Shown piece after piece: positions 8,045-9,995 of a DNA stretch of 64,000 bases. This DNA is from Bdellovibrionota bacterium (GTDB taxonomy: Bacteria; Bdellovibrionota_C; UBA2361; JAFLCA01): positions 3,624-67,623 of the forward strand of contig JAYRHW010000189.1 of NCBI GenBank assembly GCA_041907145.1. Reading direction: 5' to 3'. Position 1 is the stretch's first letter. Each line of letters starts with the position of its first letter. The translations under genes were made by a program, and so were the position numbers. The notes beneath the pieces are model-generated. The model saw only the letters and a list, made by a program, of their open reading frames with translations. It was not told the origin of the DNA and did not search any database.

Positions 8045-9952
8045 CTACACGGAAAGCAGCTGCATCGCCAGCGATGGTAATTGATTGGCCTGCGCGAGCA
8101 GCGCTGCCCCTGCCTGCTGTAAGATCGAAGTGCGGAGCAGCTGCGCTGATTCTGATGCGACGTCCGCATCCGCTATGCGGCTGTATGCGGCTTGATTTTC
8201 ATCACGCTGAGATTGAACAAGACGGCCAGCGCTTTCGACCCTACTCAGACCGGCGCCGAGGGTGCCGCGGATACTCGCCAGATCCCGTAGATTATAGTTC
8301 AGTAGGTCCAGCGCCGACAGCGCGCTGTTGCTGGAGGTCAGCGTCTGTTCTCCTAGGCCCCTAAGCGCCCCGCTGATAGACTTCAAAACAGAGGCAATAT
8401 TGCCGCGAGACCCGCTGCCTGCCTCAAAATTCAAGCTTATATCGGCACTCGAGGTGTCAATTTCATAGAGTGTCATTCCATCGGATATATCGTCGTGATA
8501 AACGCGGTTTCCATCAGCGCTTACGACAATTCCCGAGGCATAGCTCATATCGAAATCTTGTAGGCCGAATGAAGTCGTCTGCGTTAGCTGGCGGTTTGCC
8601 ACATCAATTTTAAAGACCTGATGCAGCCCGCCAGAGTTAGTACCGCTCCAATTTTGATTATCGACAAATACGATGGAGGTGCCGTCCGCACTCGCCGAAG
8701 CATAAACCCCAGTGGCAGTCGTATTATTGGTTAGTTTCGTCGCAGATCCGGACTGCCAATCCAATGAGAAGAATTGAAATTTGAGAGCGGCGTTTAGACC
8801 TCCCACGTTTCCAGACGACGTAAAAGATGCCAGTCCATCATTGGAAACCGCTACCACTTGAGTTCCAGCAATTGTAGCTCCGCTTGTTGATTTGGTGGTC
8901 AGCGAGGTGCCACGAGTATTCGACACATATACTCCCGTACCACCGTCATAAACAGCGACATAACCCCCATCGTTGCTTACTTTCATATTGCCGCCATAAC
9001 CATAGCCGGCGCCGCTGTTAAGACTACGAATGATGCCAGTGCTCAGATCAAGCACGTAGGCCTTGTTGACTCCACCAGTGGTCGCAGAGCTCAAAGTCCC
9101 CCCGTCGGTATATTGAGTGGTGGTGCCAAAGGCGACGGTCAATCCATCGGCGCTTACCGCAAAGCTCGATAAATCCAGTGCGGCAGTAGAGTTGGTTATC
9201 TTCGAAGTTGTTTGCGAGCCATAGCGATAGACATACAAATCTCGCTTGGAGCTTGCCGTCTTGTTAAAATATACATCTCCGTTGTTGAGTATCTGCATCG
9301 TTTCAGCCCCGGAAATCCCGTTACTGATATCTCGATCGGTGCCTGTCACGGTATCTTTGATAGCTGTTTTGGTGTCATCTGCGTACAACAAGTAGCGACC
9401 ATCTGCGGACAAACCATATATATACTTGGAATTACTCGAACCGGGCAGCAGCGTGTCGAGAAGTCTGGAAGCGCGTCCACTGGTTCCTCCATTTGAGACA
9501 TTGATGCCATTAAACGTACTCGACTCGTACAGCCGTTTGATCTCCTTTGCGAGCTGCTGATACTCCTTGTCGAGACTGATCCTCTGGCTGCGTGACAGTG
9601 CCCCATTTGACGCCTGCTGCGCGAGCTCCTGCATGCGGACGAGCAAATCATTGGTTTGGCTCAGGGTGCCGTCGCCGATAGAGAGCGCGGAAACGGCGTC
9701 TGATATATTAAGATTAGCGCGGCCGAAGATCCTGGCACGAGCTTGCAGTCCCGCGCCAACCGAGAGGCCGGCGGAGTCATCCGAAGGGCGATTAAGCCGG
9801 CTGCCACTGCTTAGTCTCTCGAGCGAGCGCGACATGGCATCCGTCGAAGACGACATACGCCGCTGTGCGTTCAGTGCAACGAGATTTATTCCTAGAGTAA
9901 TCGGCACGCCGGAAACTTCCTTGTGAACAGAGAGCGCTCCTCCATTGAGCAC
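8045..9952 (-). CDS. fliC: flagellin with enlarged central (hypervariable) region containing beta-propeller-like repeats
   Basis: The N-terminus INLVALNAQRRMSSSTDAMSRSLERLSSGSRLNRPSDDSAGL matches the flagellin N-domain. The C-terminus LLRTSILQQAGAALLAQANQLPSLAMQLL matches the flagellin C-domain. The ~400-aa middle carries repeated SADGxxVxF / SNDGGYVAVYDGG-type motifs. Probable true start is GTG at ~9907 (VPITLGINLV), which has AAGGAAG 8 nt upstream. Confidence 0.8.
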   Translation of the reverse strand: MLNGGALSVHKEVSGVPITLGINLVALNAQRRMSSSTDAMSRSLERLSSGSRLNRPSDDSAGLSVGAGLQARARIFGRANLNISDAVSALSIGDGTLSQTNDLLVRMQELAQQASNGALSRSQRISLDKEYQQLAKEIKRLYESSTFNGINVSNGGTSGRASRLLDTLLPGSSNSKYIYGLSADGRYLLYADDTKTAIKDTVTGTDRDISNGISGAETMQILNNGDVYFNKTASSKRDLYVYRYGSQTTSKITNSTAALDLSSFAVSADGLTVAFGTTTQYTDGGTLSSATTGGVNKAYVLDLSTGIIRSLNSGAGYGYGGNMKVSNDGGYVAVYDGGTGVYVSNTRGTSLTTKSTSGATIAGTQVVAVSNDGLASFTSSGNVGGLNAALKFQFFSLDWQSGSATKLTNNTTATGVYASASADGTSIVFVDNQNWSGTNSGGLHQVFKIDVANRQLTQTTSFGLQDFDMSYASGIVVSADGNRVYHDDISDGMTLYEIDTSSADISLNFEAGSGSRGNIASVLKSISGALRGLGEQTLTSSNSALSALDLLNYNLRDLASIRGTLGAGLSRVESAGRLVQSQRDENQAAYSRIADADVASESAQLLRTSILQQAGAALLAQANQLPSLAMQLLSV

Positions 9953-9964
9953 TACACATGTAGA

Positions 9965-9995
9965 AAAATCGGCTAGTTATGCCACTTCGCTTAGA
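9965..9995 (-). promoter_or_regulatory. sigma-28 (FliA)-like promoter upstream of flagellin gene
   Basis: The minus strand reads CTAAG-N16-GCCGATTT, against the consensus TAAA-N15-GCCGATAA. It lies ~55 nt upstream of the candidate GTG start. Confidence 0.4.

Follow-up and report, generated by a model that had tools for sequence, protein, structure and literature searches.

The 64-kb stretch of contig JAYRHW010000189.1 (Bdellovibrionota bacterium) analysed here, referred to below as the window, carries on its minus strand a gene for a flagellin of 620 amino acids whose middle region is predicted to fold as a closed seven-bladed β-propeller of four-stranded blades, of the PD40/TolB type. The product is probably a late-class flagellin paralog that is exported, incorporated into the filament and shows a non-enzymatic propeller at its surface; its promoter, incorporation and role are what we infer from comparison and structure prediction. 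All coordinates are those of the window and are collected in Table 1.

The ends of the protein were first compared with Pfam and NCBIfam models. Flagellin_N (PF00669) matched residues 8 to 137 at 90.7 bits (cutoff 26.6) and Flagellin_C (PF00700) matched residues 538 to 618 at 58.3 bits (cutoff 23). Many NCBIfam flagellin models scored between 100 and 149 bits, 149 being the best, while the FlgL model TIGR02550 gave only 71 bits, under its cutoff of 127. As the flagellin models outscore FlgL, which stays below cutoff, identity as FlgL/HAP3, a hook-associated protein, was rejected. When a profile of the family was searched against all PDB sequences, filament-forming flagellins came out on top (E down to 1.9e-74) and all 60 of the matches listed were named flagellin, flagella or FliC; none of these had a comparable domain over the propeller region, and no experimental structure of a flagellin with such a propeller was found in this search. 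In an AlphaFold2 model, made with a 29-sequence alignment, the ends form the canonical long helical hairpin (helices 5–129 and 526–618) and the middle is β-structure; Foldseek matched the helical core with the filament structures 9au6, 9n59, 7sn7 and others (E 1e-15 to 1e-11). On the evidence of sequence and model, then, the protein is a flagellin and not a hook-associated protein. A preliminary description of this DNA, made from the sequence alone, had recognised flagellin helices bracketing a middle region and had proposed a Pfam scan as a check, with a hook-associated protein whose ends fell below the thresholds as the alternative. Flagellin_N, Flagellin_C and PD40 all pass their cutoffs, the two ends by a wide margin.

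The middle region was analysed by its repeats and by structure prediction. S[AN]DG occurs six times (residues 167, 252, 311, 355, 406 and 463), with a period of about 40 to 60 residues; in each repeat the motif leads into a hydrophobic strand, after which come a variable loop, a second strand with D at its end, and a turn with TG. A seventh, degenerate repeat has NNGD at about residue 208. The "about six" repeats of the preliminary description were thus right for S(A/N)DG itself but one short in total. Pfam PD40 (PF07676) is marginal in the window protein, at 21.9–22.0 bits against a cutoff of 20.9, and is found in 21 of the 29 aligned family members, with a best E of 1.2e-18; weak DPPIV_N and Tricorn_N signals are also present in the window protein and some relatives. 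The AlphaFold2 model of the whole protein had a mean predicted local distance difference test score (pLDDT) of 82.3 and a predicted template modelling score of 0.75. It places 28 β-strands between residues 148 and 495, in seven groups of four, and most ten-residue blocks of the propeller region have a pLDDT of 83–93. The blades lie roughly at residues 158–196, 197–240, 241–300, 301–343, 344–395, 396–452 and 453–487, and strand 148–151 probably completes blade 7, an assignment made without a view of the model coordinates. Foldseek matched the middle region with propellers in the PDB (E about 1e-10 to 1e-9, probability 1.0), among them TolB (6pnv, 2hqs, 1c5k), seven-bladed G-beta, tricorn (1k32), oligogalacturonate lyase (3pe7) and a designed seven-bladed propeller (7bie). 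The propeller of acylaminoacyl-peptidase was matched too. Serine, glycine and threonine make up 38% of the region, yet it is predicted to be well ordered. The TolB/PD40-type insert first suggested from the letters is therefore supported by the structure prediction that had been recommended as well as by Foldseek and PD40 matches, and a disordered Ser/Thr-rich middle lacking any repeat assignment is not what was found; the insert is shorter than the 400 or so residues then estimated, the propeller spanning about 340.

In canonical flagellins the D1 β-hairpin comes after FNG..LL and before any outer domain; Salmonella FliC carries TLTIQVGANDGETIDIDL at this hairpin. The consensus of the hairpin in short Bdellovibrionota flagellins is LDLQVG....I. 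The insertion point of the propeller was located with a profile of 277 positions built from 88 short flagellins in the fetched loci. The N-terminal part of the window protein matched positions 1–142 and the C-terminal part positions 133–276, the latter aligning to residues 476–618 with low alignment confidence over the hairpin stretch. No QVG-like hairpin was found N-terminal to the propeller in the window protein. On its C-terminal side, residues 490–508 are predicted by AlphaFold2 to be strand-turn-strand (strands 490–495 and 503–508), and the E.G.G..G.I positions of this hairpin are 72–98% conserved over 61 family members. From sequence and model, the propeller seems to be inserted ahead of the D1 hairpin and not behind it. 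Two other groups of propeller flagellins, introduced below, were placed on the same profile: in a second PD40 group the N-terminal part runs up to positions 151–180 and the C-terminal part starts from about 175, and in flagellins with an FG-GAP propeller the corresponding positions are 154–171 and 166–178. Since the insertion points differ (before the hairpin in the window group, after it in the second PD40 group and in the FG-GAP group), the three groups probably go back to separate insertion events, provided that the insertion point of the window group is right.

Table 1. Features of the flagellin gene, its upstream region and its neighbours (window coordinates)
Feature	Position	Strand	Remarks
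Zinc-ADH (alcohol dehydrogenase) family gene	7002–8030	+	flagellin neighbour; Pfam
Flagellin coding sequence	8045–9907	-	620 amino acids; GTG start at 9907, stop codon 8045–8047
C-terminal D1/D0 helices	8048–8377	-	residues 511–620; Pfam; AlphaFold2 helices 526–609, 611–618
Probable D1 β-hairpin	8378–8446	-	residues 488–510, ISLNFE-AGSGSRG-NIASVL, C-terminal to propeller; AlphaFold2, conservation
Predicted seven-bladed PD40/TolB-type β-propeller	8447–9472	-	residues ~146–487; AlphaFold2, Foldseek, PD40, blade alignment
N-terminal D0/D1 helices	9473–9907	-	residues 1 to ~145; Pfam; AlphaFold2 helices 5–34, 45–100, 106–129
Ribosome-binding site AAGGAAG	9916–9922	-	8 nt 5' of GTG 9907; read from sequence
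Putative σ28-like -10 element GCCGATTT	9966–9973	-	16 nt past TAAG; ends 58 nt before start codon
σ28-like -35 element CTAAG	9990–9994	-	read from sequence; within strict pattern match
DAO/GlpD-like gene	10088–11728	-	flagellin neighbour; Pfam

The start of the gene needed to be settled, as the longest open reading frame (ORF; 8045–9952) gives 635 amino acids counted from its first in-frame GTG, and a second in-frame GTG at 9907–9905 gives the 620-residue protein, beginning MPITLGINLVALNAQ. In 28 homologs the N-terminus aligns with that of the shorter form, MPITLGINL, and the NCBI protein P0001 (620 amino acids) is identical to this form. GTG 9952 was rejected: no homolog N-terminus reaches it except that of P0006, a probable mis-call, and it has no ribosome-binding site and lies only about 14 nt beyond the end of the -10 box at 9966, so that there is no room for a leader. 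The start at GTG 9907 is supported by the aligned homologs, by P0001 and by this spacing, which bears out the earlier preference for the GTG preceded by AAGGAAG over the first in-frame codon. The protein has no cysteine and two histidines. The guanine plus cytosine (GC) content across the gene is 50–55%, like that of the flanks (window average 54%), and a recent horizontal transfer island was unsupported, there being no tRNA, Rfam or mobile-element signals either. The gene is a genuine, intact paralog.

The extent of the family was then determined. A word-indexed search returned about 17 full-length relatives with 32–40% identity and 578–642 amino acids. An exhaustive phmmer search of 1.84 billion representatives with the propeller alone (residues 145–512) gave 375 matches at E <= 1e-3, of which 92 had E <= 1e-10. 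Classification with local profiles showed that at least 61 clusters, of 560–670 amino acids, combine the flagellin N-terminus, this propeller and the flagellin C-terminus; the remaining retrieved propeller matches were non-flagellin PD40-repeat proteins. The named flagellin relatives are from Oligoflexia and Bdellovibrionales metagenome-assembled genomes (MAGs), and the species representatives with the best D0/D1 match are, among the matches listed, predominantly Bdellovibrionota. MAGs with propeller flagellins also encode short flagellins of about 277–286 amino acids: Oligoflexia SSF8 has both kinds on L086 plus L038, and CAYOAK01 has three tandem short flagellin genes on L012 as well as a PD40-type fragment adjoining an FG-GAP type on L005. 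The architecture is less rare than the preliminary description implied, given the 61 or more clusters, and a WD40-type outer-domain cluster had already been published (PMC11532411).

Across the 61 clusters, conservation in the middle region is confined to SxDG at the A–B turns, D..TG at the C–D turns and G.N in some B–C loops. On average, the commonest residue at a position has a frequency of 0.37 in the propeller and 0.59 in the core. Nothing among the conserved positions, whether His, Cys or a group of acidic residues, suggests catalysis. Such a pattern is in keeping with selection that maintains the fold, with surface loops that vary and no catalytic set conserved. A scaffold, binding or mechanical role is favoured over catalysis because the conservation is purely structural and the loops are variable.

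Unusual outer domains are well documented in flagellins. A propeller-type outer domain has been reported in one structure-prediction survey, and the PD40 family itself is uncharacterised and known mostly from metagenomes. That survey, by Fields et al. in 2024 (Nat Commun, PMC11532411), used AlphaFold and describes, as cluster #55, outer domains of "WD40-repeats" for which there are cellular homologs, the propeller being suggested to have been co-opted from cellular propeller proteins. Beyond it, nothing on PD40, FG-GAP or β-propeller flagellins was found in the literature searched. As far as its description goes, cluster #55 resembles the window family in having a D0/D1 core and a propeller outer domain known from AlphaFold predictions only, and differs in that the propeller of the window family seems to lie ahead of the D1 hairpin rather than behind; on the same description, it could be the PD40 family, the FG-GAP family or another.

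The FG-GAP/VCBS flagellins (P0020 and P0026; L005, L007, L009 and L011) are like the window protein in length (about 600–620 amino acids), in having a propeller outer domain and in coming from similar taxa, and their D0/D1 ends are the closest to those of the window protein (41–53% identity). They differ in matching FG-GAP_3 (E 1e-39 to 1e-49) and not PD40, in having a middle with no detectable similarity to that of the window protein, and in carrying the insert after the D1 hairpin, the canonical position. FG-GAP and PD40 types co-occur in one MAG. The FG-GAP/VCBS type also includes P0022 and P0027, again from Bdellovibrionota-like MAGs, and L011 has three such genes on one contig.

The second PD40 group (P0023, P0028, P0037 and others) likewise has flagellin ends and PD40 repeats, in proteins of 678–696 amino acids with 27–31% full-length identity, and its genes are, like the window gene, isolated or in tandem and not neighboured by flagellar machinery. 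Unlike the window group it has very regular repeats of about 45 residues, SADGRY..F.S.A.NL..GVSG.Q.Y.KD..TG, and keeps the D1 hairpin (LQ.GYG..G) ahead of the propeller. In the Bdellovibrionales MAG CAZTBW01 there are three paralogs of this group, two in tandem on L088 (5982–8066 and 8838–10904) and one on L004 (380–2401); the tandem pair adjoins toxin–antitoxin genes and giant Ig/cadherin-repeat surface proteins.

In the Tol-Pal system, TolB works in the periplasm as a propeller of six blades that carries an α/β domain at its N-terminus. The window propeller shares with TolB/PD40 proteins the blade motif (S.DG, strand, loop, strand ending in D, TG), with Foldseek E values of about 1e-10, and has many matches among PD40-repeat proteins that are not flagellins, P0128 (E 2e-32) being one. 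It has about 15% sequence identity to TolB structures, and in contrast to TolB is predicted to have seven blades, forms part of a flagellin and would lie outside the cell. A large, independently folded, filament-exposed domain in the variable region is also what has been described for flagellinolysin (PMC5595980) and giant flagellins (PMC6248924). The window protein differs from flagellinolysin in having no HExxH motif, and the comparison with giant flagellins made in the preliminary description has to be dropped, since these are defined, in the work of Thomson et al. (2018, PMC6248924), as having more than 1000 amino acids.

If the protein is a late-class filament flagellin, a FliA (σ28)-type promoter would drive its transcription late in flagellar assembly, and it would be exported unfolded via the flagellar type III channel. 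The lack of cysteine fits this, being usual in flagellins, which are exported unfolded. Through its D0/D1 helices the protein would go on to polymerise as part of the filament core, either by itself or together with short flagellins, and each subunit would show one rigid seven-bladed propeller of about 37 kDa at the filament surface. There the propeller would act as a non-enzymatic scaffold that makes the filament thicker or stiffer, its long B–C and D–A loops providing a variable face for binding or adhesion. As a rough estimate, some 340 residues per subunit outside the 60-Å radius of D1 would give a filament of about 19–22 nm. This is within the range of solved structures, larger outer domains being known from the filament of G. 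thiophilus (D2–D5, 240 Å or 24 nm; PMC11532411).

The promoter was examined in the region of about 180 nt upstream of the flagellin gene (9908–10087). The σ28 consensus of E. coli and B. subtilis is TAAA-N15-GCCGATAA. The CTAAG-N16-GCCGATTT motif noticed earlier is indeed there (9994–9966), and its FliA-type activity is predicted from its sequence. Counted over both strands, the window holds two matches to the strict pattern TAA[AG]-N15/16-GCCGAT where 0.56 would be expected, so a single strict motif is unremarkable by count; it is the position and orientation in the intergenic region that make this one credible. No σ70-like site was found within 7800–10300. Among flagellin genes in the fetched loci, eight of 154 have the strict motif upstream (0.2 expected), an enrichment, but the motif is too rare to calibrate a clade-specific consensus. 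A looser pattern taken from the window motif, YYAAG-N15/16-GYCGWT, lies upstream of five of eight propeller-flagellin genes (the window gene, P0002, P0014, P0028 and P0067), compared with 0.01 in shuffles; as it was set post hoc, this counts as support and not as proof.

The looser pattern occurs three times in the whole window. One occurrence, TCAAG-N15-GCCGATAC at 5234–5261 (+), is 51 nt upstream of an ORF at 5313–6062 (+) for 249 amino acids that has no Pfam match, its first 123 or so residues being weakly like CheY2 (PDB 1p6q, E 8e-4). The geometry of the motif is the same as at the flagellin gene, and this ORF, some 4 kb away from the flagellin, may likewise depend on FliA and be related to motility. 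A small FliA-type regulon in the genome would agree with the two motifs.

The surroundings of the gene are not flagellar. Its neighbours are the alcohol dehydrogenase and glpD relatives recognised earlier. No flagellar, chemotaxis or sigma-factor Pfam families were found in essentially all window ORFs of at least 200 amino acids, and no tRNA genes or Rfam matches in the window. The other genes serve nucleotide and RNA metabolism, replication and translation (PrmA, PurD, PurH, MutS, ribosomal protein S1, PurA, Cmk) or encode redox enzymes (the zinc-ADH, the GlpD-like DAO oxidoreductase, a glucose/sorbosone dehydrogenase), signalling proteins (a PP2C phosphatase, an OmpR/HisKA pair), hydrolases (an amidase, a patatin, S8, M1 and M48 peptidases) and envelope or other proteins (GT4 glycosyltransferases, a Wzm/Wzt transporter, a multihaem/LVIVD protein). 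The relatives P0002, P0017, P0014 and P0008 are likewise alone among unrelated housekeeping genes in flanks of up to 10 kb on each side, and in B. bacteriovorus the flagellar genes, six fliC included, are scattered over the genome (PMC2791853). The term "orphan" used for the window gene therefore holds as a statement of isolation within 64 kb and not as a special feature. The ADH-like and flagellin genes are convergent, with 14 bp between the stop codons (8030/8045) and no convincing intrinsic terminator in this gap; given the lack of a terminator-like hairpin, the two transcripts may overlap.

Several points weigh against assignment as a filament flagellin with a surface propeller. No flagellar apparatus, fliA, fliS or fliD was found in the window, where the Pfam scans took in essentially all ORFs of at least 200 amino acids. 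The spacer of the promoter motif is 1 nt longer than in the E. coli/B. subtilis consensus, and the looser pattern, besides being defined after the fact, is missing upstream of three of the eight relatives. In the window protein taken alone the PD40 score is marginal (22 against 20.9 bits). We know of no solved filament with a propeller inside D1, ahead of the hairpin, and the compatibility of this topology with assembly is unproven. The flagellum of Bdellovibrio is sheathed by membrane, and if that of the host is sheathed in the same way, a bulky outer domain would, by this analogy, be unexpected. Lastly, expression, export and presence in the filament are predictions.

Three alternatives to a surface propeller on the filament were weighed and are taken in order of likelihood: a minor or secreted component, display of an enzyme, and a relic or assembly artefact. 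In the first, which is rather unlikely, the protein would be exported by the type III route but would be a minor positional component (for instance a proximal or distal segment, or a layer adjacent to the junction or cap) or a secreted flagellin-like adhesin or effector whose propeller binds a target such as prey envelope or polysaccharide. The isolation of the gene would suit such a role, as would the several short canonical flagellins of related MAGs, which could form the bulk of the filament, and the non-canonical place of the propeller within D1. In Bdellovibrio, several flagellins make up the filament in an ordered series of segments (PMC2791853), and PD40/WD40 propellers are usually interaction scaffolds (PMC11532411). 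Set against this, D0/D1 is of full length and conserved as in filament flagellins, FlgL models score much lower and below cutoff, and some MAGs have two or three such paralogs, one pair in tandem, which is more like the multiplicity of structural flagellins.

The second alternative, an enzymatic propeller presented by the flagellum much as in flagellinolysin and perhaps peptidase-associated or of the lyase type, is very unlikely. Enzymatic flagellins do exist (PMC5595980), and the Foldseek matches to the 3pe7 lyase and to the tricorn protease and acylaminoacyl-peptidase propellers, together with the weak DPPIV_N and Tricorn_N signals, point in this direction. An enzymatic insert was nevertheless rejected, as a catalytic motif is absent and reactive residues are not conserved: the window protein has no HExxH motif, no peptidase Pfam match, no Cys and only the two His, no catalytic domain stands beside the propeller, and only the structural SxDG, D..TG and G.N are conserved among the 61 relatives. 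In DPP IV/tricorn-type peptidases, moreover, the propeller is the gating domain and not the catalytic one.

That the gene is a decaying, non-functional relic or a chimera of MAG assembly, as the absence of flagellar genes nearby, the origin of the assembly in an uncultured organism and the failure to find the exact gene on another contig might suggest, is hardly credible in view of an unbroken ORF of 620 codons with a ribosome-binding site and a promoter-like motif, a GC content that fits the flanks, an architecture that recurs, its fold motifs conserved, across many samples and in 61 or more independent clusters, and the independent assembly of part of the window in a Logan run.

Some further features of the window were recorded. 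An ORF of 1227 amino acids at 60094–63777 (-) has both multihaem cytochrome c motifs (Cytochrome_C7, c3_2) and LVIVD β-propeller repeats, an unusual large redox or surface protein. At 41792–47491 (-) an S8 subtilase with CarboxypepD_reg/Big_1 adjoins a 1238-residue CarboxypepD_reg-repeat protein, and the ORF at 37262–38257 (-) weakly matches the type IV pilin-like N-terminal methylation motif, below threshold (20.2 against 21.2 bits); the three genes have the look of a cluster for secreted or surface proteins. When PurA (adenylosuccinate synthetase; 27674–29098, -) was compared with 5.8 billion proteins, the nearest relative other than itself was only 56% identical, and the named matches are scattered across phyla. 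This suggests for the window an origin in a lineage that branches deeply and has been little sampled.

The outer domains of flagellins set the thickness, mechanics, adhesion and antigenicity of the filament, and to our knowledge no flagellar filament with a β-propeller outer domain has been solved or studied experimentally. The clusters described here, at least 61 in number, with their FG-GAP and second PD40 counterparts, are concrete targets for cryo-electron microscopy and binding studies, and offer a natural case of a large repeat domain that would be threaded unfolded through the flagellar channel to fold at the tip. A bolder proposal, which we regard as unlikely, is that propellers were recruited at least three separate times in Bdellovibrionota-like bacteria (PD40 before and after the D1 hairpin, FG-GAP after it) by convergent selection for a rigid layer, serving as a surface sheath or as an array adhering to prey or surfaces. 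At a radius of about 85 Å the cell of a subunit would, as a rough estimate, be about 48 by 52 Å, near the propeller diameter of about 50 Å. If there were three such recruitments, the propellers could tile the filament into a proteinaceous sheath, or could form a multivalent adhesive array with thousands of faces per filament for attachment to prey or surfaces. Should the propeller of the window family be mere bulky decoration, it would be one more entry in the diversity of outer domains; if it binds ligands, each filament would present thousands of copies, which would be relevant to the attachment of predatory or surface-associated bacteria and to the engineering of display scaffolds.

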